From the IMG/VR virus record IMGVR_UViG_3300042563_002362: a stretch of DNA of 64,000 nt; one strand, 5' to 3'. The notes beneath the pieces are model-generated. The model was not told the origin of the DNA. It made no database searches and saw only the letters and a program-made list of their open reading frames with translations. Positions within the stretch are counted from its first letter, which is position 1. Each line of letters starts with the position of its first letter. The translations under genes were made by a program, and so were the position numbers. Source of the DNA: a virus. Taxonomy: Duplodnaviria; Heunggongvirae; Uroviricota; Caudoviricetes. Positions 11,287 to 32,672 of this stretch are shown here, piece after piece.

Positions 11287-11547
11287 ATGACCAATTTACA
11301 AATTCTTAAGTCTGATTTAGAAATGCATGTCGCTCGAAGGGAGCAGCTGGCAAATGGCAATGGCGGATTCTTTATTCGACGTGAAGGGTATCCAGTGACT
11401 GGTGTTCTTGCCAGTTATGATAAGATCATTGTATCTCTTAAAAAAGAAATTGCCGATCTTGAAATAAAGAAGACTGCGCGTAAGCAGCCGCAGAAAAAGA
11501 CCACGACCAAGAAGAAAACCTCTAGCAAAAAGAAAGCCGCTAAATGA
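11287..11547 (+). CDS. small protein with Lys-rich basic C-terminal tail
   Basis: 86 aa. The C-terminus is KKTARKQPQKKTTTKKKTSSKKKAAK, which suggests histone-like or nucleic-acid binding. Confidence 0.45.
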   Translation: MTNLQILKSDLEMHVARREQLANGNGGFFIRREGYPVTGVLASYDKIIVSLKKEIADLEIKKTARKQPQKKTTTKKKTSSKKKAAK

Positions 11548-12575
11548 AACTTGCCTCAGTTGAACTCGTAAAAGAAATCAAACCTCATTCAAATGCTGAC
11601 TCGCTTGAGATCGCCGTTGTCCTTGGGTATGAATGTATCGTACCAATCGGTAAGTTTTCGCCGGGACAAGCTGTTGTGTTGATTCAGCCTGACGTTGTGC
11701 TTCCAGATGCTCCATGGGCAGAGGTTTTCCGGGCGCGATCAAATCGTGTCAAGGCTATGAAGCTGCGTGGAGTTTGGAGCTTCGGTATTGTCCTCAGTGT
11801 ATTTGATATCGTCGATCACAACTCACGCGGTAGTGCGCAGCTGAAGCGTTGGCTGCTTCCAATTAACATCGGAAAGGATATCTCTGAGGAAATTGGAGTC
11901 GCTAAGTATGAACCTCCCGCGCCAAAGTCTCTTGACGCTGCAGGACACTTGCCGTCTAGAATGCCAAAGACCGACGAAGAGCGTTATCAAAACCTGACTG
12001 ACAGCCTGCCATACGGCGAACATGTTGACGTCACGCTGAAGATTGACGGTCAAAGCGCTACTTACTTCTGTATCCGTGACGCGAATGCTGAAGGTGGATG
12101 GCGCACTGGAATTTGTTCTCGATCTCTTGAGATTAAGCCTGAGTGCAATAACAATTACACGCTCGCTGAACGTAAGTACAACATTCTCGAAAAGCTCAAG
12201 AACTATTGTACGTACCATAACGTCAGCCTTGCACTACGTGGCGAGGTTTACGGGCAAGGCATTCAAGCCTTTGATGCAAATCCACACTCTAAGCTCCCGC
12301 TTGACTTTGCAGCATTTAGCGTATGGAACCACGACACTCTAGCTTATGAAGGTCCCAATGACCCACATTACTACGAAAAGGTAGCAGCCGCTACGGTTGG
12401 CGAAATTCCCGTTGTACCGATGGTCGAGCGTCAGGTAGTTCTTACGTCTGAACTGATTGAAAAGTATGCACGTGGAATCGACAAGATTGAAGGCAAGCGT
12501 TTTGAAGGAGTTGTGATTAAGCATTCGCTTGGTAGCTTCAAAGTCATCAACCTTTCCTACGACGAACGCAAGTAA
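11544..12575 (+). CDS. RNA ligase with N-terminal OB-like domain (Rnl5/DraRnl-NgrRnl-like)
   Basis: 343 aa. The KxDG nucleotidyltransferase motif TLKIDGQSATYF lies near residue 166. The N-terminal ~150 aa (IKPHSNADSLEIAVVLGYECIVPIGK...) resembles a tRNA-binding/OB fold. Size and motif position match the Rnl5 family. Confidence 0.45.
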   Translation: MKLASVELVKEIKPHSNADSLEIAVVLGYECIVPIGKFSPGQAVVLIQPDVVLPDAPWAEVFRARSNRVKAMKLRGVWSFGIVLSVFDIVDHNSRGSAQLKRWLLPINIGKDISEEIGVAKYEPPAPKSLDAAGHLPSRMPKTDEERYQNLTDSLPYGEHVDVTLKIDGQSATYFCIRDANAEGGWRTGICSRSLEIKPECNNNYTLAERKYNILEKLKNYCTYHNVSLALRGEVYGQGIQAFDANPHSKLPLDFAAFSVWNHDTLAYEGPNDPHYYEKVAAATVGEIPVVPMVERQVVLTSELIEKYARGIDKIEGKRFEGVVIKHSLGSFKVINLSYDERK

Positions 12576-14196: not shown

Positions 14197-15144
14197 ATGA
14201 AACCAACCTCAGCGAAATTGCTACACACTTACCAAAATGGTAATGTAACTGTGTCTCTTTATGAAGACGGCACCAAGGTTCGTGAATGGCCCGATGGTGA
14301 AGCTCCACGTGTGACTCATCCCGAAAGCTGTGACCTCAAAATTACACAGTATTGTGACCTTGACAGCATCTGCGTCTACTGCCACGAAATGTCCAATAAG
14401 CAGGGCAAGCACGGCGACCTTGATCTTGTTGCAAAGATTTGGGAAACACAATACCCAGGCACCGAACTTGCGATTGGCGGCGGAAACCCGCTTGCGCATC
14501 CTGGCATCGAGAGTTTCCTTCGCACCGTTACTTCACGCGGCATCATTCCAAATGTCACGATGAACATGCTTCACATGAAGAAGTTCGGACCGACGATCAG
14601 GCGCTTCCAGGAAGACCGCTTGCTGTATGGTCTTGGTATCAGCTACCGCGGTGGTGACGGATTTAAGTTCCTTCCTGACGACATTGACTACTCAAATGTT
14701 GTCTTCCACATGATCCTTGGAGTACATAGCCTTGGCGACTGTATGCAGGTTATCAAATGGTGCCGCGCTCGAGACATCAAGCCGAAGATCCTTCTGCTTG
14801 GATACAAGACGTATGGTAAAGGTAAGGATTACTACAATCCCGAGCTCCAAAAGGAACTTGACCGTTGGAAAGGTTTTTCGCTGCAGCGTCTGTTTCTATT
14901 TGAAGGAGTAACAATCAGCTTTGACAATCTTGCGATCACGCAGCTTGACTTGCAGAAGCAGGTCTCTAAGGAAGATTGGGAGCTGCTCTATCAAGGCGAA
15001 GATGGTAACCACACGTTCTACGTCGATGCAGTGAAGGGTGAGGTTGCACGTACTTCAACAAGCGACCTTCGCTACGCTATCACCGATGCCGCCACCGTCG
15101 TCGATATTTTCAACAAAGTCAAAGAAGAACACGCATACGCATGA
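14197..15144 (+). CDS. putative radical-SAM-like Fe-S enzyme (non-canonical Cx5Cx2C)
   Basis: The Cys cluster is CDLKITQYCDLDSICVYCHE. It is followed ~35 aa later by LAIGGGNPLAHPG, which is GGE-motif-like. The spacing is not canonical CxxxCxxC, so the call is tentative. Confidence 0.35.
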   Translation: MKPTSAKLLHTYQNGNVTVSLYEDGTKVREWPDGEAPRVTHPESCDLKITQYCDLDSICVYCHEMSNKQGKHGDLDLVAKIWETQYPGTELAIGGGNPLAHPGIESFLRTVTSRGIIPNVTMNMLHMKKFGPTIRRFQEDRLLYGLGISYRGGDGFKFLPDDIDYSNVVFHMILGVHSLGDCMQVIKWCRARDIKPKILLLGYKTYGKGKDYYNPELQKELDRWKGFSLQRLFLFEGVTISFDNLAITQLDLQKQVSKEDWELLYQGEDGNHTFYVDAVKGEVARTSTSDLRYAITDAATVVDIFNKVKEEHAYA

Positions 15145-15938: not shown

Positions 15939-16478
15939 ATGAAAACAATCCGACATAACACATACGAAACAAACTCGTCTAGCACGCATGCTTACAGCGT
16001 GCAAGATTTGAACCTTAAGAACCGCCCTGACCTCAACATCATTCCTGGCGATGATGGATTCATTCGAGTCGGCTTTACCGAAATGACTGAGTCGACTCCT
16101 CAGAACAAGATTGGTCATATTCTTAATTACGCCAATTCGGTTGGTGATCAAGAATTGTTTGATCGCGTCTGCAAGGTCGTCGAGGAATTCACTGGAGCAA
16201 AACTACTTGTTAGCGCTTCAGTCCGATTGAATAACAAGTGGGAAAAGGTTGACAATCTGCGTGAAGTCACCAATCCTAAGTTCAACTTCGACACCGAGGA
16301 AGAATACGATTGGGAAACTCTAAATGATCGATGGTATTCATTTACAAACGAATATGGGCATGGCAGCATCAATGAGTTTTGTGGAGTCATGAATGAAATT
16401 GGTCGCACCGAAGAAAACCTGAAGATCTTTATCTTCTCATCTAACCAAGGAGTACATGTCGAATCCTACTATAACTGA
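15939..16478 (+). CDS. paralog 3 of MKTIRHNTYETNSSSTHS family
   Basis: 179 aa with the same N-terminal peptide. Confidence 0.5.
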   Translation: MKTIRHNTYETNSSSTHAYSVQDLNLKNRPDLNIIPGDDGFIRVGFTEMTESTPQNKIGHILNYANSVGDQELFDRVCKVVEEFTGAKLLVSASVRLNNKWEKVDNLREVTNPKFNFDTEEEYDWETLNDRWYSFTNEYGHGSINEFCGVMNEIGRTEENLKIFIFSSNQGVHVESYYN

Positions 16479-17049
16479 AGTATCTGATCGCCTTGCAAGT
16501 CTTAAACTTGCGGCCGAAACTCTAGGTTGTGTCGATCTTGCGTCTAAAGTTCTTGATGATAAAAACTTTCGTATTTGGAGTGGTTCTCATCATAAACTTG
16601 CGCACCATTATGGAGACGGTGGACTACTGACGCATACCTTTGAGGTTGTCACTTTGTCATTAAATACCGCTCATCTCTATAGCGATGTTCATAAGATTGA
16701 CAACAAGCAGCTGTTCTTAAGCGCGTTGTATCATGACTATGGCAAGCTATGGGATTATGATCGCAGTGAAGATGGTAAATGGGTTCGTAATAACCATCGT
16801 CGCAAGATCCACCACATTTCGCGTTCAAACGTAGAATGGGTTTGCTGGGCAATTGCAATGGGAGCAGACGACGAATTGATTGATGCCGTTAGTCATAACA
16901 TCTTATCGCATCATGGTTCACGTGAATGTGGTAGCCCAGTTGCTCCATACACACGTGAGGCGTGGATTCTACATCTCGCGGACTCCATGAGCGCGCGCGT
17001 TGATGATTGTGATCGTCTTGACTTGGTAACAATTAACAAAAATGCCTGA
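16456..17049 (+). CDS. HD-domain phosphohydrolase
   Basis: It has an H...HDYGK motif (LYHDYGKLWDYD) plus downstream His/Asp. Confidence 0.5.
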   Translation: MSNPTITEVSDRLASLKLAAETLGCVDLASKVLDDKNFRIWSGSHHKLAHHYGDGGLLTHTFEVVTLSLNTAHLYSDVHKIDNKQLFLSALYHDYGKLWDYDRSEDGKWVRNNHRRKIHHISRSNVEWVCWAIAMGADDELIDAVSHNILSHHGSRECGSPVAPYTREAWILHLADSMSARVDDCDRLDLVTINKNA

Positions 17050-18554: not shown

Positions 18555-19973
18555 ATGACATTTGAATTTAATACTGCACTAGATCTGATCGGAAAGCTCG
18601 ATGAAGCGTTCCCAGGAACGCAAAGTCTGATTGTCGGCGGAGCGGTTCGTGACTACTTTTTGAACGTACCCGCGCACGACGTTGACATTGCAACCAATGT
18701 TCCGTTTGAGCAGCTTGCGCTATACTTTGAGTTGCAGGACATCACGAAGAACACCGTGAATGCTCAGCCTGTTAGCATCATCGTTCATTGCGGCGTCGCT
18801 TTTGAAATTGCTCAGTTCCGCACTGACAGTATCGGTACTGACCGTAAGAGTAACGTCGCAACGGTTGTCAGCACCTTTGAAGAAGACAGTGCGCGTCGTG
18901 ATATCACGATTAACGCAATAGGTCTTGACCGCAATCAGAAGATCATCGACCCACAAGGTGGACGTCAAGATCTGATTAGAGAATTGGTCACGTGCGTCGG
19001 CGATCCAAACATTCGCTTTCAGGAAGATGCAACACGTATTCTTCGGGTCTTGCGGTTTGCTGCTAAGCTAAACTTCGCTATTCACCCTGACACGCTTGAC
19101 GCGGTTATTCGCAACCGTGGTCTACTCACTGATCGTGAACGTATTAGTCCAGAGAGTATCGCTAAGGAAATCTTTAAGGCTGCACATGATGGCGTAGTCT
19201 TTGCAAGATTTATTCGGCTGCTTGATCTAATGGGCATTAGTTCTCTAATCCTGCGTGAATGGATTGATCTGAATGGATTTACTCATGATCCTATTCACCA
19301 TCCTGAAGGTGGAAGTACTGTTCAAGGTCATATTCTTGAGTGCCTTGTTCAAGGTGGATTTACGAATGATCCTGTGACTAACATCGGTATCTTCTGTCAT
19401 GACCTTGGTAAGGCAGTCACTCGCGGGGTCAAGAGCAACGGACAGTCCAACTATCATGGGCACGAAGGTGCAGGAGTTCCTATTGTCGAAGCACTGTTTG
19501 ACCGCCTGCGGTTTAACGATCTGTCTTCAGGCGACAAGGAAGATATCCTCTTTGCCACCGAAAAGCACATGCTGATTCATAACCTTCGTGAACTTAGCAC
19601 GCGCACAATTGCACGTCTGGTTCTTGCAAAGGGTTGGAATGTTCTGAAGCAAGTTGCCTTTGCTGATGAAGCAAGCCGTGGACCTGATCTTTTCAATGCA
19701 GATGAATTCACTCAAAGGATTGCTTGGGCCGAAGAAAAGGTTCGGAACATTGCTAAGAATCGCGATGAACTTCGCCTACGCGTCAAGGAACATGTTGATG
19801 GCAACAAGCTGCTGGAATGGTTCCCTGAACTGCAAAGCAATCGTAAACTCCTTGCGCCTCTTCTCGAGTTCCTTGCTGAATTCATTCTTGAATGCATCGA
19901 CCTTGGAGAGATTCCTTCCCAAGATGACATCCGTCGCGTTGCCTCAAACGAACTTTTTTACAATCTAAATTAA
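18555..19973 (+). CDS. cca: tRNA nucleotidyltransferase (CCA-adding enzyme) with C-terminal HD domain
   Basis: The Pol-beta NTase head is GGAVRDYFLNVPAHDVDIAT (GGxVRD...DxD). RRD follows. The C-terminus has HD-type His/Asp motifs. Confidence 0.65.
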   Translation: MTFEFNTALDLIGKLDEAFPGTQSLIVGGAVRDYFLNVPAHDVDIATNVPFEQLALYFELQDITKNTVNAQPVSIIVHCGVAFEIAQFRTDSIGTDRKSNVATVVSTFEEDSARRDITINAIGLDRNQKIIDPQGGRQDLIRELVTCVGDPNIRFQEDATRILRVLRFAAKLNFAIHPDTLDAVIRNRGLLTDRERISPESIAKEIFKAAHDGVVFARFIRLLDLMGISSLILREWIDLNGFTHDPIHHPEGGSTVQGHILECLVQGGFTNDPVTNIGIFCHDLGKAVTRGVKSNGQSNYHGHEGAGVPIVEALFDRLRFNDLSSGDKEDILFATEKHMLIHNLRELSTRTIARLVLAKGWNVLKQVAFADEASRGPDLFNADEFTQRIAWAEEKVRNIAKNRDELRLRVKEHVDGNKLLEWFPELQSNRKLLAPLLEFLAEFILECIDLGEIPSQDDIRRVASNELFYNLN

Positions 19974-21137: not shown

Positions 21138-21190
21138 ATCCTAATTTTCACAAAAATCTGAACTTTTTTCGGATTTTGTGCATTTTTTTG

Positions 21191-21243
21191 TTTACATTCC
21201 ATGAAAAACCTGTTAAAATAATTCTGTAAGGAAACCACCGAAT
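21191..21243 (+). promoter_or_regulatory. sigma70-type promoter cassette (drives MORN-repeat array)
   Basis: The -35 is at 21191-21196 and the -10 TAAAAT at 21214-21219. The leader AATTCTGTAAGGAAACCACCGAAT follows. ATG at 21244. A near-palindrome lies upstream. Confidence 0.55.
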
Positions 21244-21636
21244 ATGACTCCAGTATACATTAACATCGGCAAATATGGCGACAAGCATTACTACAAGGAC
21301 AAAGCAATGACGATACATCATCGTGAAGACGGTCCTGCGGTTGAATACCCCGATGGAGATAAATCTTGGTACATCAATGGAAAACTTCATCGTGAAGATG
21401 GTCCTGCGGTTGAATATGCCGATGGAGGTAAAGCTTGGTTCATCGATGGAAAACGCCATCGTGAAGACGGTCCTGCAATTGAATTTGCCAATGGACGTAA
21501 AGCTTGGTACATCGATGGAGTTTCACTAAGTGAACGAGAATTCCTCAAGCGAACTGCTCCAGAAATCGTCTTGACGATGGACGAGATTGCATCTAAGTTT
21601 GGGATTGAAGTGAGCAAGTTGAAGATCACTAAGTAA
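21244..21636 (+). CDS. MORN-variant repeat protein, array member A (3 repeats)
   Basis: The N-terminus is MTPVYINIGKYGDKHYYKDKAMTIHHREDGPAVE. It has 23-aa repeats of the form W(Y/F)xNGKxHREDGPAxExxxGxK and a conserved C-terminal tail EFLKRTAPEIVLTMDEIASKFGIEVSKLKITK. Confidence 0.6.
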   Translation: MTPVYINIGKYGDKHYYKDKAMTIHHREDGPAVEYPDGDKSWYINGKLHREDGPAVEYADGGKAWFIDGKRHREDGPAIEFANGRKAWYIDGVSLSEREFLKRTAPEIVLTMDEIASKFGIEVSKLKITK

Positions 21637-21673
21637 GTAAGTAAGGAACACGAAACGAACACTAAAACACATT

Positions 21674-22204
21674 ATGACTCCAGTATACATTATCATCAAC
21701 GAATACAGAAGTAAGCATTACTACAAGGACAAAGCAATGACGATACATCATCGTGAAGACGGTCCTGCAATTGAACATGCCAATGGAGGTAAAGTTTGGT
21801 ACGTCAATGGAAAACTTCATCGTGAAGATGGTCCTGCTATTGAATATGCCGATGGAGGTAAAGAATGGTACTCTAATGGAAAACGCCATCGTGAAGACGG
21901 TCCTGCGGCTGAATACGCTAATGTAGGTAAATTTTGGTACGTCGATGGAAAACTTCATCGTGAAGACGGTCCTGCAATTGAATTTGCCGGTGGACATAAA
22001 GAATGGTACGTCGATGGAAAACTTCATCGTGAAGACGGTCCTGCGGTTGAATATGCCGATGGGAGTAAATTTTGGTATCTCGATGGAGTGGAACACGATG
22101 AACAAGAATTCCTCAAGCGAACTGCTCCAGAAATCGTCTTGACGATGGACGAAATTGCTGCTAAGTTTGGTATCGAAGTTAGCAAGCTAAAGATCACTAA
22201 GTAA
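21674..22204 (+). CDS. MORN-variant repeat protein, array member B (5 repeats)
   Basis: Same architecture, 176 aa. Confidence 0.6.
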   Translation: MTPVYIIINEYRSKHYYKDKAMTIHHREDGPAIEHANGGKVWYVNGKLHREDGPAIEYADGGKEWYSNGKRHREDGPAAEYANVGKFWYVDGKLHREDGPAIEFAGGHKEWYVDGKLHREDGPAVEYADGSKFWYLDGVEHDEQEFLKRTAPEIVLTMDEIAAKFGIEVSKLKITK

Positions 22205-22227
22205 GTAAGGAACCCAAAACGAACATT

Positions 22228-22758
22228 ATGACTCCAGTATACATTATCATCAACGAATACGGAAACAAGTATTACTACAAGGACCAAGCAATGACGATAC
22301 GCCATCGTGAAGATGGTCCTGCGGTTGAACTTGCCGGTGGAGATAAATCTTGGTTCATCGATGGAAAACTTCATCGTGAAGACGGTCCTGCGGTTGAATA
22401 CCCCGATGGACATAAAGCTTGGTACGTCAATGGAAAACGCCATCGTGAAGATGGTCCTGCAATTGAACATTCCGATGGATGTAAAGAATGGTTCATCGAT
22501 GGAAAACTTCATCGTGAAGATGGTCCTGCAATTGAATATGCCAGTGGAGGTAAATCTTGGTTCGTCAATGGAAAACGCCATCGTGAAGATGGTCCTGCAG
22601 TTGAACTTGCCGGTGGACATAAAGAATGGTACGTCGATGGAGTTTCACTAAGTGAACAAGAATTCCTCAAGCGAACTGCTAAAGAAATCGTCTTGACAAT
22701 GGACGAGATTGCATCTAAGTTTGGGATTGAAGTGAGCAAGCTAAAGATCACTAAGTAA
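22228..22758 (+). CDS. MORN-variant repeat protein, array member C (5 repeats)
   Basis: Same architecture, 176 aa. Confidence 0.6.
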   Translation: MTPVYIIINEYGNKYYYKDQAMTIRHREDGPAVELAGGDKSWFIDGKLHREDGPAVEYPDGHKAWYVNGKRHREDGPAIEHSDGCKEWFIDGKLHREDGPAIEYASGGKSWFVNGKRHREDGPAVELAGGHKEWYVDGVSLSEQEFLKRTAKEIVLTMDEIASKFGIEVSKLKITK

Positions 22759-22788
22759 GGAACCCAAAACGAACACGAAACGAACATT

Positions 22789-23250
22789 ATGACTCCAGTA
22801 TACATTATCATCGGCAAATACGGAAACAAGCATTACTACAAGGACAAAGCAATGACGATACTTCATCGTGAAGATGGTCCTGCGGCTGAACATGCCAATG
22901 GATGTAAAGAATGGTACTCTAATGGAAAACATCATCGTGAAGACGGTCCTGCGGTTGAATATGCCAATGGACATAAAGCTTGGTTCATCGATGGAAAACT
23001 TCATCGTGAAGATGGTCCTGCAGTTGAACTTGCCGGTGGACATAAAGAATGGTACGTCAATGGAAAACGCCATCGTGAAGACGGTCCTGCGGTTGAATAT
23101 GCCGATGGACATAAAGCTTGGTTCATCGATGGAGTTTCACTAAGTGAACAAGAATTCCTTCTTAAAACCGCTAAAGAAATCGTCTTGACGATGGACGAGA
23201 TTGCATCTAAGTTTGGGATTGAAGTGAGCAAGCTGAAGATCCAGAAGTAA
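22789..23250 (+). CDS. MORN-variant repeat protein, array member D (4 repeats)
   Basis: Same architecture, 153 aa. Confidence 0.6.
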   Translation: MTPVYIIIGKYGNKHYYKDKAMTILHREDGPAAEHANGCKEWYSNGKHHREDGPAVEYANGHKAWFIDGKLHREDGPAVELAGGHKEWYVNGKRHREDGPAVEYADGHKAWFIDGVSLSEQEFLLKTAKEIVLTMDEIASKFGIEVSKLKIQK

Positions 23251-23290
23251 CGAACACGAAACGAACACGAAACGAACACTAAAACACATT

Positions 23291-23821
23291 ATGACTCCAG
23301 TATACATTAACATCGGCAAATATGGCGACAAGCATTACTACAAGGACAAAGCAATGACGATACGCCATCGTGAAGACGGTCCTGCTATTGAACTTGCCGA
23401 TGGAGGTAAATCTTGGTTCGTCAATGGAAAACGCCATCGTGAAGACGGTCCTGCGGCTGAAGATGCCGATGGACATAAAGAATGGTTCATCGATGGAAAA
23501 CATCATCGTGAAGACGGTCCTGCAATTGAATATGCCGGTGGAGGTAAAGCTTGGTACTCCAATGGAAAACTTCATCGTGAAGACGGTCCTGCAATTGAAT
23601 ATGCCGATGGGAGTAAATTTTGGTTCGTCAATGGAAAACTTCATCGTGAAGACGGTCCTGCAGTTGAACATTCCGATGGAGGTAAAGAATGGTACGTCAA
23701 TGGAGTGGAACACGGTGAACGAGAATTCCTCAAGCGAACTGCTAAAGAAATCGTCTTGACGATGGACGAGATTGCATCTAAGTTTGGCATTGAAGTGAGC
23801 AAGCTAAAGATCACTAAGTAA
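23291..23821 (+). CDS. MORN-variant repeat protein, array member E (5 repeats)
   Basis: Same architecture, 176 aa. Confidence 0.6.
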   Translation: MTPVYINIGKYGDKHYYKDKAMTIRHREDGPAIELADGGKSWFVNGKRHREDGPAAEDADGHKEWFIDGKHHREDGPAIEYAGGGKAWYSNGKLHREDGPAIEYADGSKFWFVNGKLHREDGPAVEHSDGGKEWYVNGVEHGEREFLKRTAKEIVLTMDEIASKFGIEVSKLKITK

Positions 23822-23855
23822 GTAAGGAACCCAAAACGAACACGAAACGAACATT

Positions 23856-24179
23856 ATGACTCCAGTATACATTATCATCAACGAATACGGAAACAAGCAT
23901 TACTACAAGGACAAAGCAATGACGATACGCCATCGTGAAGACGGTCCTGCGGTTGAACTTGCCGATGGGAGTAAAGCTTGGTACTCTAATGGAAAACGCC
24001 ATCGTGAAGATGGTCCTGCGGTTGAATACCCCGATGGACATAAAGTTTGGTATCTCGACGGAGTGAAACACGGTGAACAAGAATTCCTTCTTAAAACCGC
24101 TAAAGAAATCGTCTTGACGATGGACGAGATTGCATCTAAGTTTGGGATTGAAGTGAGCAAGCTCAAGATCCAGAAGTAA
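23856..24179 (+). CDS. MORN-variant repeat protein, array member F (2 repeats)
   Basis: Same architecture, 107 aa. Confidence 0.6.
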   Translation: MTPVYIIINEYGNKHYYKDKAMTIRHREDGPAVELADGSKAWYSNGKRHREDGPAVEYPDGHKVWYLDGVKHGEQEFLLKTAKEIVLTMDEIASKFGIEVSKLKIQK

Positions 24180-24208
24180 CGAACCCGAAACAAACACTAA
24201 AACACATT

Positions 24209-24670
24209 ATGACTCCAGTATACATTATCATCGGCAAATACGGAAACAAGCATTACTACAAGGACAAAGCAATGACGATACTTCATCGTGAAGATGGTCC
24301 TGCAGTTGAACTTGCCGGTGGACATAAAGAATGGTACGTCAATGGAAAACGCCATCGTGAAGACGGTCCTGCGGTTGAATATGCCGATGGAGGTAAAGCT
24401 TGGTTCATCGATGGAAAACGCCATCGTGAAGACGGTCCTGCGGTTGAACTTGCCAGTGGAGGTAAAGAATGGTACGTCAATGGAAAACGCCATCGTGAAG
24501 ACGGTCCTGCGGTTGAACTTGCCGATGGATGTAAAGCTTGGTTCATCGATGGAGTTTCACTAAGTGAACAAGAATTCCTTCTTAAAACCGCTAAAGAAAT
24601 CGTCTTGACGATGGACGAAATTGCATCTAAGTTTGGGATTGATGTAAGCAAGCTAAAGATCTCTAAGTAA
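24209..24670 (+). CDS. MORN-variant repeat protein, array member G (4 repeats)
   Basis: Same architecture, 153 aa. Confidence 0.6.
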   Translation: MTPVYIIIGKYGNKHYYKDKAMTILHREDGPAVELAGGHKEWYVNGKRHREDGPAVEYADGGKAWFIDGKRHREDGPAVELASGGKEWYVNGKRHREDGPAVELADGCKAWFIDGVSLSEQEFLLKTAKEIVLTMDEIASKFGIDVSKLKISK

Positions 24671-24692: not shown

Positions 24693-25040
24693 ATGAATCG
24701 TACAAGTAAACTATCTAGGCTTTTTAAATTCTTCTGGATGTCTCAAGCTGAACCTGATGAGACATGGGATAAACTATTGAATCTCCTGATTGATAAAGGA
24801 ACTGTTACAAAAGTAGATAACTTCACAATTACATTCGACAACGCCTTTACTGTTTGGACCTCCAATCACCCATACGCTAGTGGAATCCTTTATGTGTACA
24901 AAGGTAAGTACACTGACGAGAGACTACACTGCTCTAAGGCAACTAAAATTCGACTAGAGGATTTTTATTACAAATATCTAGAAGATACAAAAGCTCAAAG
25001 TTATGTAGAGAAAGAACTAAAGATCTATAAGAACAAGTAA
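24693..25040 (+). CDS. hypothetical protein
   Basis: 115-aa ORF. Confidence 0.4.
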   Translation: MNRTSKLSRLFKFFWMSQAEPDETWDKLLNLLIDKGTVTKVDNFTITFDNAFTVWTSNHPYASGILYVYKGKYTDERLHCSKATKIRLEDFYYKYLEDTKAQSYVEKELKIYKNK

Positions 25041-25071: not shown

Positions 25072-25623
25072 ATGAAACTAATGAAACTAATGACAATCGT
25101 TGTGGCTGCTCTTATGCTGCCTTCGTGTATTGAAGAAACCCAGCCAAGTAATGCCAGCGGCAGTGTCTCAAAGAAGACTGTTGAGGTATCAACTGATGCT
25201 GATGGTTGGACTGTAGAACAGAAGAATATTGCTGAACGACTCAAGCGTGATAATGTCGCTGGAGCAATCAAGCATCTGTATGTGATTAGTCCTTATAGTG
25301 GTCAGGTGATTCTGTATTCCACCGTGAAAGGTAAGGTCACTTCATCTGGTAAGCGACTAACTCCTACAAGTGTATCAGCGGGTGCTTGGGAGTATGTCAA
25401 CAGTCCTCATAGTGGTATGGGTGTCAATATTAACGGGCAGACAAAATACACATCAGAAGTGCTACAAGATGATGGCTCTTATGGCAGTTCATGTGAATAC
25501 ATTTATTGGTTCAGCTCTAAGGGAACTTTCCATAGTCACTTCTTCACTGGTGGACAAATCATCCATGTTTCTGATCAACCAATTGCTGTAAAGAACATCA
25601 CTCTTAACCTCGAAGACCGCTAA
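25072..25623 (+). CDS. secreted lipoprotein
   Basis: It has a signal peptide ending in the lipobox LMLPSC. Confidence 0.45.
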   Translation: MKLMKLMTIVVAALMLPSCIEETQPSNASGSVSKKTVEVSTDADGWTVEQKNIAERLKRDNVAGAIKHLYVISPYSGQVILYSTVKGKVTSSGKRLTPTSVSAGAWEYVNSPHSGMGVNINGQTKYTSEVLQDDGSYGSSCEYIYWFSSKGTFHSHFFTGGQIIHVSDQPIAVKNITLNLEDR

Positions 25624-25624
25624 T

Positions 25625-26089
25625 ATGAAAACCGTTGTATATATTTTTCTCTCTCTGGTAGCATGTACTGTCATCATTGGATGTAGTATCCTGAGTAAAG
25701 GATGTTCTTATGTTGGCAAGGCAACTGCTGTCGTTGAACAACAACTAGATCCGGCTCTTCTCTTGAAGAAGTATGAATGGTTCAAAAATGTAGCAGCAGA
25801 ATGTGATAAGAAACTTGCTGATGTTCAGGTTTATAAGTCCCGTCTCACTAGTATGGAGAAGTCCTATGAAGGCACCTCTCGTAAGGATTGGGATCGAACT
25901 GATAAAGAACAGTTTAATCTATGGGAGCAAGAAGTTGCGGGTGTCGTTGCCAGTTATAACAGCCTAGCTGCTGAATATAATGCAGCCATGTCCAAGATCA
26001 ACTATGCCTTTACCAATATCGGATCTCTCCCAAAGGGAGCAGCTGAACCATTGCCGCGAGAGGTGCGATCATATACTCTTTCCTTTTAA
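25625..26089 (+). CDS. membrane-anchored/lipoprotein-like protein
   Basis: The N-terminus is hydrophobic and carries IIGCS. Confidence 0.4.
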   Translation: MKTVVYIFLSLVACTVIIGCSILSKGCSYVGKATAVVEQQLDPALLLKKYEWFKNVAAECDKKLADVQVYKSRLTSMEKSYEGTSRKDWDRTDKEQFNLWEQEVAGVVASYNSLAAEYNAAMSKINYAFTNIGSLPKGAAEPLPREVRSYTLSF

Positions 26090-26198: not shown

Positions 26199-26249
26199 TT
26201 TACATTCGTCTAAAAACCTGTTAAAATAATTCTGTAAGGAAACCACCAC
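26199..26249 (+). promoter_or_regulatory. sigma70-type promoter cassette
   Basis: The -35 is at 26199-26204 and the -10 TAAAAT at 26222-26227. The leader AATTCTGTAAGGAAACCACCAC follows. ATG at 26250. Confidence 0.55.
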
Positions 26250-26964: not shown

Positions 26965-27270
26965 ATGAAAGTTTTTCTCGATGACGAAAGAGTCACTCCG
27001 CAAGGATGGTTCCGAACATACAATCCCGACGACACGATTGATTTGCTGCACGCTGGTCTGGTGACTGAGCTTAGCCTCGATCATGACCTTGGTGATGACG
27101 ACGAAATCGGAACTGGATATGACGTGGTTCTTTGGATTGAGGAAGCCGTTGCTTTGCGAGGCTTTGTTCCTCCAATCATTCACGTTCACTCCGCAAACTC
27201 TTCGGCCGCCGCAAAGATGCGTGCTGGAATCGAAACAATCCAAAGACTACACAATGCACTCTCCGTATAA
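26965..27270 (+). CDS. small receiver(REC)-like domain protein, RtcB-associated
   Basis: It begins MKVFLDDERVTPQGW and has an acidic loop LSLDHDLGDDDEIGTGYDVVLWIEE. It is 101 aa and lies just upstream of rtcB. It resembles the receiver-like modules I recall as being linked to RtcB operons, but I cannot verify this. Confidence 0.3.
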   Translation: MKVFLDDERVTPQGWFRTYNPDDTIDLLHAGLVTELSLDHDLGDDDEIGTGYDVVLWIEEAVALRGFVPPIIHVHSANSSAAAKMRAGIETIQRLHNALSV

Positions 27271-27439: not shown

Positions 27440-28675
27440 GTGATATTGCCTGTGGAAATTATTTATAAAAATGACAATCTTATGAAACTATTAGGTTCAA
27501 ACAACAATATTCCGGTTTTCGGCGATCCTCTCCAGAATGCCGTTGATCAGATGTCGAACTGTCTCGTCAAGGGTGGCTACAAGGCTGCACTTATGGCTGA
27601 CCATCACCTTGGTTATGCTGTTCCTGTCGGCGGCGTAATTGCTTACAAGGACAAGATCTCGCCTTCAGGTGTAGGCTTCGACATCGGCTGCGGAAACAAG
27701 GCTGTGATGACTGACCTGCACTATGGAGATATCGCGGGTGATATGAACCGTATCATGGACGAAGTGTTTGATCGCATCTCGTTTGGAATCGGCCGCAAGA
27801 ACAAGACTGATGTTGACCATGCGTTGTTTGACAACGATGCTTGGACTGACATCGCTATGCTCGGCGAGCTGAAGGACATGGCGCGCGGACAGCTTGGTAC
27901 TGTCGGCAGCGGTAACCACTATGTCGATATCTTCTATGATCAAAAGGGTCGCGTTTGGATCGGAGTTCACTTTGGTTCACGTGGTCTTGGTCACAAGATT
28001 GCTTCGCATTACATCAAGGCCGGCGGCGGTGTTGACGGTATTAACGTCGATCCTGCTATCTTGGATGTGAATACTGACCTTGGTCGCGAATACATCGCTG
28101 CTATGAACCTCGCTGGTGAATATGCGTATGCTGGTCGCGATTGGGTCTGTGAAGAAGTTGCTCGTATCCTTGGTGCGTCTATCCTTGACAGCGTTCACAA
28201 CCACCATAACTTCGCTTGGAATGAAACTCATGACGGTGAAGACCTTTGGGTTGTTCGCAAGGGTGCTACTCCTGCTTTCCCAGGTCAACGTGGTTTTGTC
28301 GGTGGAACTATGGGTGAAAACTCAGTGATCCTCGAAGGCGTCGCGTCGGACCTTTCTTCCTCTACTCTGTATTCAACTGTTCACGGTGCAGGCCGAGTCA
28401 TGTCGCGCACCGAAGCTGCTGGTAAGTCCAAGTGGAAGGGTGGAAAGAAGATCAAGATTTCGGAAGGCAAGGTCTCGCAGGCCATGATGGACGAATGGGT
28501 TAACAAGGCTGGCGTTGTTCTTCGCGGCGCAGGCGTCGATGAATCTCCACATGCTTACAAGCGTTTGGCTGATGTCCTTGAAGCTCAGGGCGACACTGTT
28601 CGTATTCTCGACGTTCTTACTCCAATCGGAGTTGCGATGGCAGGTGCTGATGTATTTGATCCTTACGCCGATTGA
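27440..28675 (+). CDS. rtcB: RtcB-family RNA 3'-phosphate/2',3'-cyclic phosphate ligase
   Basis: 411 aa (or 397 aa from the ATG at 27482). It has GFDIGCGN, GSGNHYVDIF and HNHHNFAW blocks, with length typical of RtcB. Confidence 0.65.
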   Translation: MILPVEIIYKNDNLMKLLGSNNNIPVFGDPLQNAVDQMSNCLVKGGYKAALMADHHLGYAVPVGGVIAYKDKISPSGVGFDIGCGNKAVMTDLHYGDIAGDMNRIMDEVFDRISFGIGRKNKTDVDHALFDNDAWTDIAMLGELKDMARGQLGTVGSGNHYVDIFYDQKGRVWIGVHFGSRGLGHKIASHYIKAGGGVDGINVDPAILDVNTDLGREYIAAMNLAGEYAYAGRDWVCEEVARILGASILDSVHNHHNFAWNETHDGEDLWVVRKGATPAFPGQRGFVGGTMGENSVILEGVASDLSSSTLYSTVHGAGRVMSRTEAAGKSKWKGGKKIKISEGKVSQAMMDEWVNKAGVVLRGAGVDESPHAYKRLADVLEAQGDTVRILDVLTPIGVAMAGADVFDPYAD

Positions 28676-29502
28676 ATGATACGTTTCCAATCAGATTCTT
28701 CACCATCTTTGATTCTGAAGAATCTGCATTGTAATTCTTCAATTATTCTATCCTGACGCAGCTTATCTTTAAGTTTTTGATCTGGTCTTTCGTGATAAGC
28801 TTCATCAAACTCAATTACCACATTTTCAACCGGTTCATAATAATCAAGAAGATATCCAGCAACTCTAAATTCACCAACATTTTCAGCATGAACTCCGTTC
28901 CATCCAAGCTCTGAATTTATTTCCTCAAATAATCGACAAGCCTTTGCATTATAATTTGGACATGTCCAGCCTAAAGGATACTTTGAATCAATATCTCGTA
29001 AACGTCCATCTCTCTGTTTTTCTTTAGTCTCTGGTGTATGAATTTTTCCAGTAAATCCAGGCTTTCTCCCTTTAAGACTTTGAGATTTACGTTTTCTAGT
29101 TTCAGGACTTTCAGTAATGCCTAATCGTGACTTGTTGTATTCTTTTCCTTTATTTGCTTTACTGATTTTCTCTTTGGTTTCTTTAGTATGTGTTCGACTA
29201 AAAGCATGACTTCGATCAGTACACTTATAACACGTGGTTGCCTTTAATGCTCGATAGTAACATCCAATTCCAGTATGAATGACAATTTCGCCGCATTGAC
29301 ACGTTCTAGTGTATTCTGTTAATTGAGCTAGTGGATCTTTATCATATGTTCTTTCAACTGCACATGAATCTCTTATTTCTTTGTCCATTAAAAACTTTAC
29401 ATTGTGTTTCTTCTTATACTCATTTGGAGAAAGACCGCAGCAATACTTAAGATGTAAATAACCAATACTTTTTAATTCTCTTTGACACTCTAAGCAAATC
29501 AT
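28663..29502 (-). CDS. free-standing homing-endonuclease-like protein (Cys-rich HNH/Zn-finger plus NUMOD3-like basic repeats)
   Basis: It has N-terminal CLECQ...HLKYCCG and CQCGE...CYKC clusters. The C-terminal region has repeated ETKEK/ETRKRKS/GRKPGF motifs. It is on the opposite strand and overlaps the rtcB 3' end by 13 nt. Confidence 0.4.
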   Translation of the reverse strand: MICLECQRELKSIGYLHLKYCCGLSPNEYKKKHNVKFLMDKEIRDSCAVERTYDKDPLAQLTEYTRTCQCGEIVIHTGIGCYYRALKATTCYKCTDRSHAFSRTHTKETKEKISKANKGKEYNKSRLGITESPETRKRKSQSLKGRKPGFTGKIHTPETKEKQRDGRLRDIDSKYPLGWTCPNYNAKACRLFEEINSELGWNGVHAENVGEFRVAGYLLDYYEPVENVVIEFDEAYHERPDQKLKDKLRQDRIIEELQCRFFRIKDGEESDWKRIIQSA

Positions 29503-30536: not shown

Positions 30537-31363
30537 TGAAACCGCAATGGATCATAGAAAACTTCACAAAGGAAGAATCGTTTCTTGACCTTGAAAAAGA
30601 AGTCAGAGCCCAGGGCTATGACGTTCAAACTATCAAAGGTGACTTTCTTAAAGCTGATCTGGCTGATTATCGCGACACATGCGTAATCTTTAATGGCAGC
30701 ATTGAGATGTGCAAGATTGCAAAAGAAGTACTCAGCGCTCAAGGATGCAGTCCAATCATCTATTGTGATTGGGAAAAGTATCTGTGCACCTCTTACTATC
30801 CGCATTTCTCAGAGCACGTCTTCAATGACAACTATGTCTTAGTGCCGATGATTGAGTTTCAGCGTAGGCTGTATCAATTCTATGGCATCTTTGGTAAGCA
30901 AGAGCTGATCTTTGTTCGACCAAACAACGGAGACAAAACCTTTAAAGCTGAACTGCTTGACATTCAAGATGCACCGAAGTTCTTTGAAGAATTAGACCAA
31001 TACAAACATGACTTGGTCCTGCTAAGTACTCCAAAGAACATTGTCGGAGAATGGCGTTTTGTATGTACGGCCGAAAAGGAAATCCTAGCAGTATCAAGCT
31101 ATCGCTATCAAGGAGTACTTACGCGTATTCCGTCTGCTCCACTTGGCGCCACCGAAAAATGTAAAGAGCTTCTTGAGATCGGATATTACCCTGACAGCGT
31201 TTTTTGCATTGATATTGTGCAGGACTCTGACGGAAACTTCTGGATGATGGAACTCACCTCTTTTTCAAGCGCAGGTCTTTACTCCACTAGGAAAGAAAAC
31301 ATTGTCCGCCGCGTTTCTGAAATTGCTATGAAAGATTATGAAAAAAGTAATTTACAAAGCTGA
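30536..31363 (+). CDS. ATP-grasp-fold protein (putative ligase)
   Basis: The track ORF is 30449..31363 and the Met at 30536 abuts the upstream stop. The blocks IFVRPNNGDKTFKAELL, EWRFVCTAEKEILAVSS and FCIDIVQDSDGNFWMMELTS match ATP-grasp core strands (RimK/GshB-like). Confidence 0.4.
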   Translation: MKPQWIIENFTKEESFLDLEKEVRAQGYDVQTIKGDFLKADLADYRDTCVIFNGSIEMCKIAKEVLSAQGCSPIIYCDWEKYLCTSYYPHFSEHVFNDNYVLVPMIEFQRRLYQFYGIFGKQELIFVRPNNGDKTFKAELLDIQDAPKFFEELDQYKHDLVLLSTPKNIVGEWRFVCTAEKEILAVSSYRYQGVLTRIPSAPLGATEKCKELLEIGYYPDSVFCIDIVQDSDGNFWMMELTSFSSAGLYSTRKENIVRRVSEIAMKDYEKSNLQS

Positions 31364-31400
31364 CCAAACCGTTTATAATAATCTCACAACAAACAACAAC

Positions 31401-32672
31401 ATGATTAAGAAAACACTACTACTGCTTGCGGTATTTGCCGGTTCCACTCTTGCATTCAATGCTTTTGACGGATCGGGCGCTTCAACATTGGTCGCAAATA
31501 AACTTGCGCTCGATACTGTGAATGGCGGAAACGCTGAGTTCATTGCTCAATATTCATATGGACATCTGCTATCTCTGAATGTATGGGCCGTTATGACTAC
31601 ACTTCTAACTGCATTGGTGATGTGGTCTCGTTCGGTAAACAAGGTCTCGGCTGCTGCTATGCTGCTTGCAGGTTTCTCGTTCCTGTCGCTGCCATCGTGT
31701 AAGCCGTATCAAAAGCCTATCTATAAGGAAATCAAAAGCAATGAAACTGCGTTTGTGATTCCCCTTGAAGGTGACACTGCATCGCAGGTAAAGTTCGACT
31801 CCAAGGCTGCACTTGAAAAGCACAAGGTTGGCACAAAGCGAATTGAGATTCCGACGCGATGGAGTCAAACTGGTCGAGGTATGGGTTCCGGTGAATGGAT
31901 TCCAACTGTGAATATCATCATTGTTGATCGTAGTCCAATTACTCGAAATTGGTCCGCAGGTGATCGAGGAACGTCTAAGGAAGATCAGGCTATCTGGGTT
32001 GAATCATCGGACAGTGTCGGATTCTCTATGGGCTTTAACTGTACCGCTTTCATTAAAGAAGAAGATACTGCACAGTTCCTCTATTGGTACAGCAGCGGTA
32101 GCCTTGCATCCGTAATGGATAGTGAAATTCGAGGACGCGTCCAGCGTGTCGCTGCTGAAGAAAGCGCCAAGCTTCCGTTGGATGATCTACGTGATAAGAA
32201 GAATGAAATCGCGGCTGCAATCCAAAAGGATGTTATCCCATTCTTCTCTGAACGTGGAATCACGGTCACTACGGTTGGTATGTTTGGCGGTATGACTTAT
32301 GAAAATCCAGAGATTCAGAAGTCAATTGACAATGTCTTTGTTGCACAACAGCAGAAGAATGTTGCACTCGCAAAATATGATGCGCAAAAGAAGGAGAACG
32401 AACGCGTGATTCTTGAAGCACAAGGTGTCGCCGAACAAAAGACTATCACTGCTGAAGCTGATGCTAAGCAGCGTCAAATCCAAGCTGATGCCGAAGCACA
32501 TGCCATCGCTACGCTTACAAAGTCAATTGCTGATGGTGGAACTAACTACCTTAACTACAAGCAAATGGAAATCAATCTTAAGCAGGCTGAACGCTGGGAT
32601 GGTTCGCTGCCAAAGATCACTGGTGGATCTGTTGTTCCAATGCTTAACGCTGAAACATTCCTTAATAAGTAA
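31401..32672 (+). CDS. SPFH/band-7-like membrane protein
   Basis: It has a signal/TM N-terminus MIKKTLLLLAVFAGSTLA. The C-terminus has an AEQK/AEADAKQRQIQADAEAHA coiled-coil typical of HflK/C-stomatin. Confidence 0.4.
   Translation: MIKKTLLLLAVFAGSTLAFNAFDGSGASTLVANKLALDTVNGGNAEFIAQYSYGHLLSLNVWAVMTTLLTALVMWSRSVNKVSAAAMLLAGFSFLSLPSCKPYQKPIYKEIKSNETAFVIPLEGDTASQVKFDSKAALEKHKVGTKRIEIPTRWSQTGRGMGSGEWIPTVNIIIVDRSPITRNWSAGDRGTSKEDQAIWVESSDSVGFSMGFNCTAFIKEEDTAQFLYWYSSGSLASVMDSEIRGRVQRVAAEESAKLPLDDLRDKKNEIAAAIQKDVIPFFSERGITVTTVGMFGGMTYENPEIQKSIDNVFVAQQQKNVALAKYDAQKKENERVILEAQGVAEQKTITAEADAKQRQIQADAEAHAIATLTKSIADGGTNYLNYKQMEINLKQAERWDGSLPKITGGSVVPMLNAETFLNK

Follow-up and report, generated by a model that had tools for sequence, protein, structure and literature searches.

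The IMG/VR virus record IMGVR_UViG_3300042563_002362 (Caudoviricetes) contains, within the 64-kb stretch of DNA analysed here (hereafter the window), a tandem array of seven paralogous genes, numbered 1 to 7 along the + strand (21244–24670), which encode small proteins built from 23-residue repeats with the core motif HREDGPA. The locus is a clear example of a widespread and uncharacterised phage gene family that occurs in hypervariable tandem arrays. The reading favoured here, to which a probability of roughly 0.55 is given, is that the array encodes a recombination-diversified set of binder proteins that are made early.

Anatomy of the Array

The seven consecutive open reading frames (ORFs) encode proteins of 130, 176, 176, 153, 176, 107 and 153 amino acids (aa), whose lengths step by 23 aa. 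When cut at HREDGPA, each protein consists of a 25-aa N-terminal segment, a run of 23-aa units and a 36-aa C-terminal tail, and the units, anchored on the same motif, number 3, 5, 5, 4, 5, 2 and 4 in genes 1 to 7. An earlier reading of this DNA (the original prediction) had given the same coordinates and repeat counts and had described common N- and C-termini around a variable number of 23-aa repeats, and all of this was reproduced. The HREDGPA core is invariant in 28 of the 28 units, which follow the consensus HREDGPA-x-E-xxx-G-x-K-x-W-Y-x-N-G-K-x, and a 47-member alignment of the family identifies the N-terminal segment as a cap that is itself a degenerate repeat. The genes and the spacers between them are:

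21244–21636, + strand: gene 1, 130 aa, three repeats; product identical to protein P0075
21674–22204, + strand: gene 2, 176 aa, five repeats; identical protein in contigs L001, L002, L003 and L009
22228–22758, + strand: gene 3, 176 aa, five repeats; two alleles in the population
22789–23250, + strand: gene 4, 153 aa, four repeats; unit types alternate with a 138-bp super-period
23291–23821, + strand: gene 5, 176 aa, five repeats
23856–24179, + strand: gene 6, 107 aa, two repeats
24209–24670, + strand: gene 7, 153 aa, four repeats; unit types alternate
21637–21673, 22205–22227, 22759–22788, 23251–23290, 23822–23855 and 24180–24208, + strand: six inter-gene spacers, A/C-rich

The gene 1 protein (P0075) is present on 41 contigs, the longest of 199,877 bp. 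At the DNA level, Tandem Repeats Finder detects 69-bp arrays in all but one of the genes, six in total (80–87% matches) and, in four of these six, a 138-bp super-period that matches better (85–93%) than the 69-bp unit. Genes 4 and 7 display a strict 46-aa (138-bp) alternation between “KEWYVNGK” and “KAWFIDGK” units, and their N-terminal 75 nt are 100% identical, which together suggests that two repeats at a time made up the ancestral duplication unit. Compared with one another, the 69-bp units are on average 81.8% identical (range 68–100%), so that the earlier figure of 85–95% was too high, while the paralogs compared pairwise are 84–100% identical over the N-terminal 75 nt and 79–96% identical over the 111 nt that encode the tail. 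The long antisense ORFs mentioned in the original prediction are real (91–198 aa) and are to be expected from the repeat structure of the array that they traverse.

Every spacer holds one to three copies of the 11-bp motif GAAACGAACAC, which Tandem Repeats Finder also detects as an 11-bp tandem repeat at 23249–23283, around the gene 4/5 spacer. In most of the spacers a remnant of the leader (GTAAGGAAC or GGAAC) has been kept, from which it follows that the duplication unit took in part of the 5′ leader. No canonical Shine-Dalgarno sequence is found in any of the six.

The Array in Independent Assemblies

Nine contigs (L001–L009) from independent metagenome assemblies were retrieved by means of gene 1 and the downstream flanking gene. 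Two independent assemblies, L003 (GCA_043531605.1) and L009 (GCA_043536365.1), carry all seven genes with the same lengths, and L001, L002, L004 and L005 agree with the array of the window over the stretches that each covers; all of these (L001–L005 and L009) are 99.7–99.9% identical to the window, collinear with it and gap-free through the array. Look-ups of exact proteins returned no record for genes 4, 6 and 7; their products are nonetheless encoded in L003, L004, L005 and L009 (that of gene 7 in L009 with one substitution, C108N), and the records are missing because gene calls differ on those contigs.

The original prediction had named a collapsed or expanded repeat as a possible source of the array, and a target of a diversity-generating retroelement (DGR) is another conceivable one. 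Many of the short-read contigs end inside the array (L001, L002, L004, L006–L008), and contig L008 and protein P0001 look like fusions (see below), as either explanation would allow. Against these points stand the full array in L003, in L009 and in the window, as well as the shortness of the exact stretches that the genes share (at most 112 nt between any two of them, and for the pair 6/7 no more than 55 nt). A scan of 20 large ORFs of the window found no reverse transcriptase, and the substitution rates, sorted by the consensus base (A 0.126, C 0.113, G 0.167, T 0.116), reveal no adenine bias. Taken together, the two explanations are scarcely credible: an assembly artefact is ruled out because the same array is present in independent assemblies, two of them with the whole array and four consistent with it, and a DGR target by the results of the ORF scan and of the substitution count. 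The contig ends inside the array fit a published finding that MORN-type repeat proteins show a 37-fold enrichment in long-read viromes, because repeats fragment short-read assemblies (PMC9238414). Since contigs break inside the arrays, the family is under-recovered by short-read assembly.

Conserved Scaffold and Hypervariable Positions

Among the 28 units of the array, twelve codons are essentially fixed and the differences pile up at positions 8, 10, 12, 14, 16, 19, 20 and 23. The ratio of nonsynonymous to synonymous differences per site (pN/pS), obtained by Nei-Gojobori counting, is 0.02 for the scaffold codons and 1.42 for the variable ones, with the N-cap (0.59) and the tail (0.37) in between; pS itself is about 0.2, from which it follows that the array copies are not recent. 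In 133 units taken from 46 homologs, H1, D4, P6, A7 and W17 are invariant, and positions 10, 11, 14, 16 and 23 stand at 2.5–3.0 bits. In these alignments, strong purifying selection acts on twelve scaffold positions of each repeat, and about six (10, 12, 14, 16, 19 and 23) are hypervariable both among the paralogs and across the wider family.

The same data bear on the view that the array is the product of neutral, repeat-driven duplication, in which case the genes would be dispensable and selfishly expanding, and their variation would reflect relaxed constraint together with gene conversion. Repetitive DNA of this type is prone to duplication and recombination, the family lacks a known function, and the genomic context differs between lineages, all of which this view accommodates. 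It is, however, hard to reconcile with seven ORFs that are intact and of equal lengths in independent assemblies, with the scaffold pN/pS, with structural models of very high confidence (see below) and with variation at the same positions throughout a family of 34,127 clusters from phages, giant viruses and bacteria, and it is considered improbable.

Allelic Exchange Within the Array

Compared with the window, contigs L001, L002 and L003 have zero mismatches in 6.0–7.9 kb of flanking sequence and 21–22 inside the array, almost all of which fall in a single patch of gene 3. This patch, and the zone in which genes 6 and 7 are fused in another contig, are located as follows:

22392–22521, + strand: gene 3 allelic patch, 130 bp, repeat units 2–3; contains 21 of the 22 differences in L001 and in L003, and 21 of 21 in L002
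24072–24128, + strand: gene 6/7 fusion crossover zone, tail-coding, brackets 55 identical nt; pairs with 24563–24619 in gene 7

The gene 3 patch alters 14 residues, nearly all of them at variable repeat positions, and includes two to three synonymous changes. The L003-type patch is found in L001, L002 and L003, and the window-type patch in L009, which differs from the window at four positions, all within the array. There is no intact donor for the patch within the array (units match at 64/69 at best), so that it probably came from an exchange with a relative, or else from several small conversions.

Contig L008 is shorter by 491 bp and one gene, with gene 6 joined to the end of gene 7. As the 55-nt identical stretch is shorter than the final k of the assembler (141), L008 is likely, though unproven, to represent a real deletion allele. 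Protein P0001, whose contig measures 1.3 kb, is a chimera of genes 1 and 3. Signs of older events are present in the window as well: by their N-termini the paralogs group as 1+5, 3+6 and 4+7, by their C-termini as 1+3, 3+5 and 4+6, and such discordant groupings point to past exchange among them. Apart from the fusion in L008 and the chimera P0001, the numbers of repeats and genes are the same in every assembly that spans the region. The locus is thus a hotspot of allelic exchange and not a fast-changing copy-number locus, and of the earlier proposal of a “diversity-generating or copy-number-variable locus” the part on exchange is borne out, because the array alone differs among near-clonal relatives and does so through a 130-bp patch, whereas the part on copy number is not. 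The history of the array is one of duplication, unequal crossing-over and patchy exchange.

A MORN-Like Fold Without a Significant MORN Sequence Match

The only Pfam family matched by the seven proteins is the uncharacterised DUF6745 (PF20530), at 21.2–37.9 bits; with respect to its gathering cut-off of 27 bits, genes 1–5 lie above (27.9–37.9) and genes 6 and 7 below (21.2 and 22.0). The match is limited to profile positions ~63–96 of 206, roughly one and a half repeats, and the remainder of the domain is absent; at the sequence level, then, the array proteins appear to share the repeat of DUF6745 and not its whole domain. DUF6745 also matches 41 of the 47 homologs of the family alignment. The hidden Markov models (HMMs) of MORN (PF02493) and MORN_2 (PF07661) give no match at E ≤ 1 in any of the seven window proteins, an outcome that the original prediction had itself listed as refuting its MORN assignment. 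When the 47 homologs were scanned at E ≤ 10, MORN_2 was seen in ten of them, always below threshold (best E 0.0054), and MORN was not among the families listed. Alignment by hhalign of two family profiles (A1 and A3) with a profile of genuine MORN proteins (MORN1 of T. gondii, P. falciparum and T. brucei, and RSPH1, with sequences taken from PDB alignments) gave probabilities of 0.2–0.3% and E values of 0.23–0.36, in a comparison whose power is limited by an Neff of ~2 on both sides. The PHROGs matches are weak and to families of unknown function, NCBIfam gives none, and the family profile retrieved no significant match from the sequences of the PDB. With neither a significant HMM match nor a successful profile alignment, the originally proposed membership of the MORN and MORN_2 sequence families is not supported.

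The predicted fold, on the other hand, is MORN-like. In the AlphaFold2 model of the gene 1 protein (pLDDT 95.8), residues 5–95 form beta hairpins that are followed by helices at 97–104, 112–119 and 123–125, while the model of the gene 3 protein (pLDDT 95.1) has the solenoid of gene 1 extended by two hairpin units, with the same tail; the number of hairpin units scales with the number of repeats (three-repeat vs five-repeat protein). The best structural matches of the models in the PDB are MORN proteins, with modest scores, and the 42 viral structure matches at E ≤ 1e-3 include giant-virus proteins annotated as “MORN repeat”. According to the models, the 23-aa repeats stack as an elongated single-layer antiparallel beta-hairpin solenoid. 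The MORN label is therefore apt for the fold, given the models, the best PDB matches and the 23-aa period, and inapt for the sequence family. DSSP assigns positions 7–10 and 15–19 of the repeat to the strands of the hairpin and 11–14 to the turn, which would place most of the hypervariable positions near the tips of the hairpins and thus on a single edge of the solenoid.

MORN proteins are protein- or lipid-binding scaffolds. Those of eukaryotes (MORN1, MORN4, junctophilins and RSP1/RSP10; PF02493) have in common with the array proteins the 23-residue period and the single-layer hairpin sheet, but their signature is YxGxWxxGKxHGxG instead of HREDGPA...G.K.WY.NGK, and the array proteins are tiny, stand-alone and tandem-encoded, with a helical tail and without HMM or profile similarity to them. 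The antitoxin/immunity proteins of the MORN_2/YwqK family are small bacterial beta-hairpin repeat proteins that bind and neutralise another protein; none of the seven window proteins matches their model, and no toxin gene adjoins the array. These two groups provide the classical roles that genuine MORN or MORN_2 members could have here, namely a membrane or lipid tether, or a YwqK-type immunity to a cognate toxin. Such roles would agree with the period, with the structural matches (some of the giant-virus relatives among them) and with the sub-threshold MORN_2 matches in homologs, yet the HMM and hhalign results speak against them, the flanks contain no toxin-like gene (no Pfam toxin domain occurs in the ORFs flanking the array), and there is no recurrent neighbour. 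Nor do the proteins possess a basic or amphipathic membrane-binding feature: they are hydrophilic and near neutral (pI 5.8–7.0; grand average of hydropathy, GRAVY, −0.6 to −0.9), and their sequences contain no transmembrane segment and no basic patch. A classical MORN role is accordingly judged decidedly unlikely, and the membrane or lipid targeting put forward originally finds no support. The array proteins are small, soluble and cytoplasmic. An acidic DNA-mimic, another candidate, is ruled out by the pI values.

The Helical Tail

The family alignment, made of 47 members of ~130 aa, ends in a highly conserved tail, EFxKxTAKEIVLTMDEIAxKFGIxVSKLKIKK. In a scan restricted to the tails of 44 members, all matches remained below threshold; they comprise Rv2175c_wHTH (19/44, best E 5.6e-4), Sigma70_r4 (12/44, best E 1.8e-4), LysM (10/44), Sigma70_r4_2 (8/44) and several generic helix-turn-helix (HTH) families, and the tail of the window itself gave none of these matches. 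Searched against the PDB, the tail profile found designed helical repeats only, and Foldseek comparison of the whole model with sigma region 4 chains (ranks 32, 46 and 47) was non-significant (E ~5). In the models the tail has three helices and is HTH-like by eye; it is best described as a generic helical hairpin for which DNA binding is putative.

T4-like phages deploy transcription modifiers such as AsiA and MotA under early promoters, and the array lies behind a promoter of early type (see below). In such a setting the tail could act as a regulator directed at DNA or at RNA polymerase, with the repeats serving for oligomerisation or as a variable spacer. Outside the scaffold, no segment of the sub-family is more conserved than the tail, Sigma70_r4, Sigma70_r4_2, winged-HTH and generic HTH models recur in it below threshold, and both the weak Foldseek matches and the three-helix layout go in the same direction. 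Against a regulator, however, no HTH match reaches its curated threshold, the motif is matched equally by LysM and by designed helical repeats, the putative recognition helix has a length of only ~7 residues when the protein ends, the proteins are not basic, and arrays of other lineages carry entirely different tails. A tail-based regulator is thus regarded as unlikely, and it is ranked, like a classical MORN role and neutral expansion, as less likely than a repertoire of binders.

Distribution of the Family and of its Arrays

An exhaustive profile search returned 34,127 clusters at 50% identity (E ≤ 1e-3), 20,199 of them at E ≤ 1e-10, and a word-indexed search at least 7,968 relatives, the majority of which are unnamed proteins of 130 or 153 aa. 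The family is spread over phages, giant viruses and bacteria. Its long multidomain members contain, according to Pfam, further repeats only (DUF6745, LRV, HEAT) and no enzymatic domain. The literature searched holds no mention of DUF6745, of HREDGPA, or of MORN repeats in T4-like phages, and MORN repeats in connection with phages receive passing mentions only.

Arrays are common among the relatives. In 41 of 78 IMG/VR loci with relatives, at least two family genes lie within ~12 kb, in arrays of 2–16 genes, the large ones reaching 8, 10, 12 and 16 genes (twelve in L050, ten each in L045, L060 and L063). In each lineage the paralogs share a constant N-cap and tail, with repeat numbers from 2 to 7. 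The largest array seen (L031, 132–7983, in the 203.8-kb record IMGVR_UViG_3300023174_000047) has 16 head-to-tail paralogs of 112–237 aa and 2–7 repeats, with a common N-cap and a 39-aa tail …KGINDPSEDQINDKVQQVTSSSILD that ends in ...SSSILD or ...SASILD, while most of the twelve genes of L050 have tails ending in ...KLKALW. Relatives also occur at 52 bacterial or archaeal genome loci, cultured Oxalobacteraceae included. In the cultured Duganella qianjiadongensis CY13W (NZ_WWCM01000007.1; L100, 3747–6384) six consecutive paralogs have an N-cap, three to five HRxDGPA repeats and a conserved tail of their own; five of the six tails are basic, with ...KR(G/L/S)KI at the end.

Among 50,697 phage records, five, from three phages, match the family; none is T4-like, which agrees with the original remark that no such module had been described for T4-like phages. 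The homologs in cultured phages are gp09 and gp10 of Celeribacter phage P12053L and several proteins of Agrobacterium phage Atu_ph07, all annotated as hypothetical. They have the repeat and the fold of the array proteins, but are less numerous and differ in their tails; in the Celeribacter phage the two genes lie side by side within a region of early type.

Genomic Setting and Promoter

The window derives from a distant T4-like myovirus (a freshwater phage). It encodes gp6-like and gp7-like baseplate wedge proteins, gp5-like and gp32-like proteins, a glycosyltransferase, a helicase and a DNA ligase. Matches to the gp6-like protein occur in 2,420 phage records, the best, at ~33% identity, being Methylophilales phage Melnitz, Pelagibacter phage HTVC008M and cyanomyoviruses. 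Neither megablast of the locus nor tblastn of a 716-aa window ORF gave a match in the 50,697 phage records.

A sigma70-type promoter lies 25 bp upstream of gene 1. The motif TTTAC[AT]-N16-18-TA[ACT]AAT is present at 17 sites of the window, where 0.58 would be expected, and 15 near-identical cassettes, of which that of gene 1 is one, are found on the + strand:

21166–21243, + strand: promoter cassette and leader of the array; AT-rich upstream element, conserved leader AATTCTGTAAGGAAACCACC running to the ATG of gene 1
21191–21196, + strand: −35 element TTTACA of the gene 1 promoter, followed after a 17-nt spacer by an extended −10 element, TGtTAAAAT, with its hexamer at 21214–21219; 10/12 plus TG in a consensus scan
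2337, 9431, 9659, 11233, 14143, 17894, 21191, 26199, 31351, 35121, 37005, 39772, 42777, 43263 and 46198, + strand: the 15 promoter cassettes

Common to most cassettes are an upstream AT-rich element, TTTACA, a spacer of 17 nt, TATAAT or TAAAAT, and the leader AATTCTGTAAGGnAACCACC up to the start codon. The cassette looks like the early-promoter class of this phage, and the array genes would by analogy with the early promoters of T4 be expressed early. The sigma70 promoter noted earlier in front of the array is thus supported, with its “early” character resting on that analogy. As the next cassette lies at 26199–26227, the transcription unit, to go by promoter spacing as the sole basis, probably comprises the seven genes and three small ORFs downstream of them.

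A Proposed Repertoire of Binding Modules

In the favoured interpretation, the paralogs would form a repertoire of binding modules that are made early, each with its own length and its own recognition edge, and their partners would be macromolecules of the host (or of the phage). The row of hypervariable positions along the edge of the solenoid would correspond to a ligand-binding-like surface, and the constant tail to a common function, be it capping, oligomerisation, or docking to a common partner or to nucleic acid. Three sources could have supplied such a repertoire, namely the duplication of genes, unequal crossing-over (both in the 69/138-bp units and in the conserved sequence that encodes the tail) and patchy homologous exchange. 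A rigid scaffold maintained by strong purifying selection, about six hypervariable positions per repeat and constant-ended multigene arrays behind an early-type promoter are what a recognition repertoire shaped by an arms race would be expected to show.

As to the target, the most attractive guess, made by analogy, is the neutralisation of variable host defence or toxin proteins, because it is suggested by small repeat immunity proteins, by the ankyrin and MORN host-range families of viruses (PMC5753266) and by the RNA-repair genes that surround the array. Extended to the whole family, the idea becomes a tentative one, with the odds clearly against it: the HREDGPA mini-proteins would be an unrecognised and widespread class of early phage proteins, a modular binder library in which recombination diversifies the edge of a rigid solenoid and unequal crossing-over determines how long it is, with arrays of 2–16 genes deploying several variants at once that neutralise polymorphic host defence or toxin proteins, and with the constant, lineage-specific tail as the common effector or docking element. 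In that case they would correspond, among bacteriophages, to the ankyrin and MORN host-range families known from poxviruses and giant viruses.

Several points weigh against the binder repertoire. The family is known from sequence and models, so that its function and timing are predictions. The pN/pS above 1 is a simple count between paralogous units, which relaxed surface constraint and gene conversion could inflate, and the placement of the variable positions at hairpin tips was read off the DSSP pattern. The stability of repeat and gene number in most assemblies implies that ongoing diversification is slow or rare. Tails that are wholly different between lineages argue against one universal partner, and LysM among the tail matches indicates that the tail pattern is that of a generic helical hairpin. 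A PADLOC search matched no known defence or anti-defence family, and no neighbour gene is conserved, the best neighbour family being present in 6 of ~73 loci.

Parallels are found in giant viruses and poxviruses, where multigene families of repeat proteins (ankyrin, MORN, FNIP) are paralog expansions thought to mediate host interactions (PMC5753266). Proteins of Mimivirus (R871), Megavirus and Klosneuvirus have the repeat fold of the array at 30–40% identity; unlike those families, the array belongs to a bacteriophage and its proteins, of 107–176 aa, are encoded head-to-tail behind one promoter, with constant ends and a variable number of repeats. In T-even phages, one report describes an “accordion” amplification of segments that carry anti-defence loci, possibly a means of escape from host immunity (PMC13096335). 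Set beside this amplification, the array is similar in consisting of tandemly multiplied early genes in a T4-like genome, and different in that its copies are old, diverged (by the pS given above) and stably inherited, and not the recent amplification of one gene.

The family has no name, no literature was found on it, and its only Pfam model is a partial DUF. If the binder reading is right, the arrays could mark a new class of genes for host interaction or counter-defence, and would provide a natural scaffold for binders that is compact, with 23 aa in each module. The homologs in the cultured phages P12053L and Atu_ph07 make the idea directly testable.

Neighbouring Genes

The three small ORFs that follow the array and the other genes of its surroundings are:

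24693–25040, + strand: small ORF, no Pfam match
25072–25623, + strand: small ORF with a lipobox-like LPSC (MLPSC), no Pfam match
25625–26089, + strand: small ORF with a lipobox-like LVAC (SLVAC), no Pfam match
11544–12575, 16456–17049, 18555–19973, 26965–27270, 27440–28675 and 28663–29502 (the last on the − strand): RNA-repair set and NUMOD3 gene

The ORFs at 25072–25623 and 25625–26089 could be membrane proteins of the superinfection-exclusion type. The RNA-repair set around the array consists of an RNA ligase, an HD-domain protein, a CCA-adding tRNA nucleotidyltransferase, a protein with a cREC_REC cyclic-phosphate receiver domain, and RtcB, a combination suggestive of a counter-measure against host tRNA nucleases; the end of the RtcB gene is overlapped, on the opposite strand, by the NUMOD3 homing-endonuclease-like gene. 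An SPFH/Band-7 domain protein and a weakly radical-SAM-like ORF (31338–32672 and 14197–15144) are also among the early-type genes of the window.

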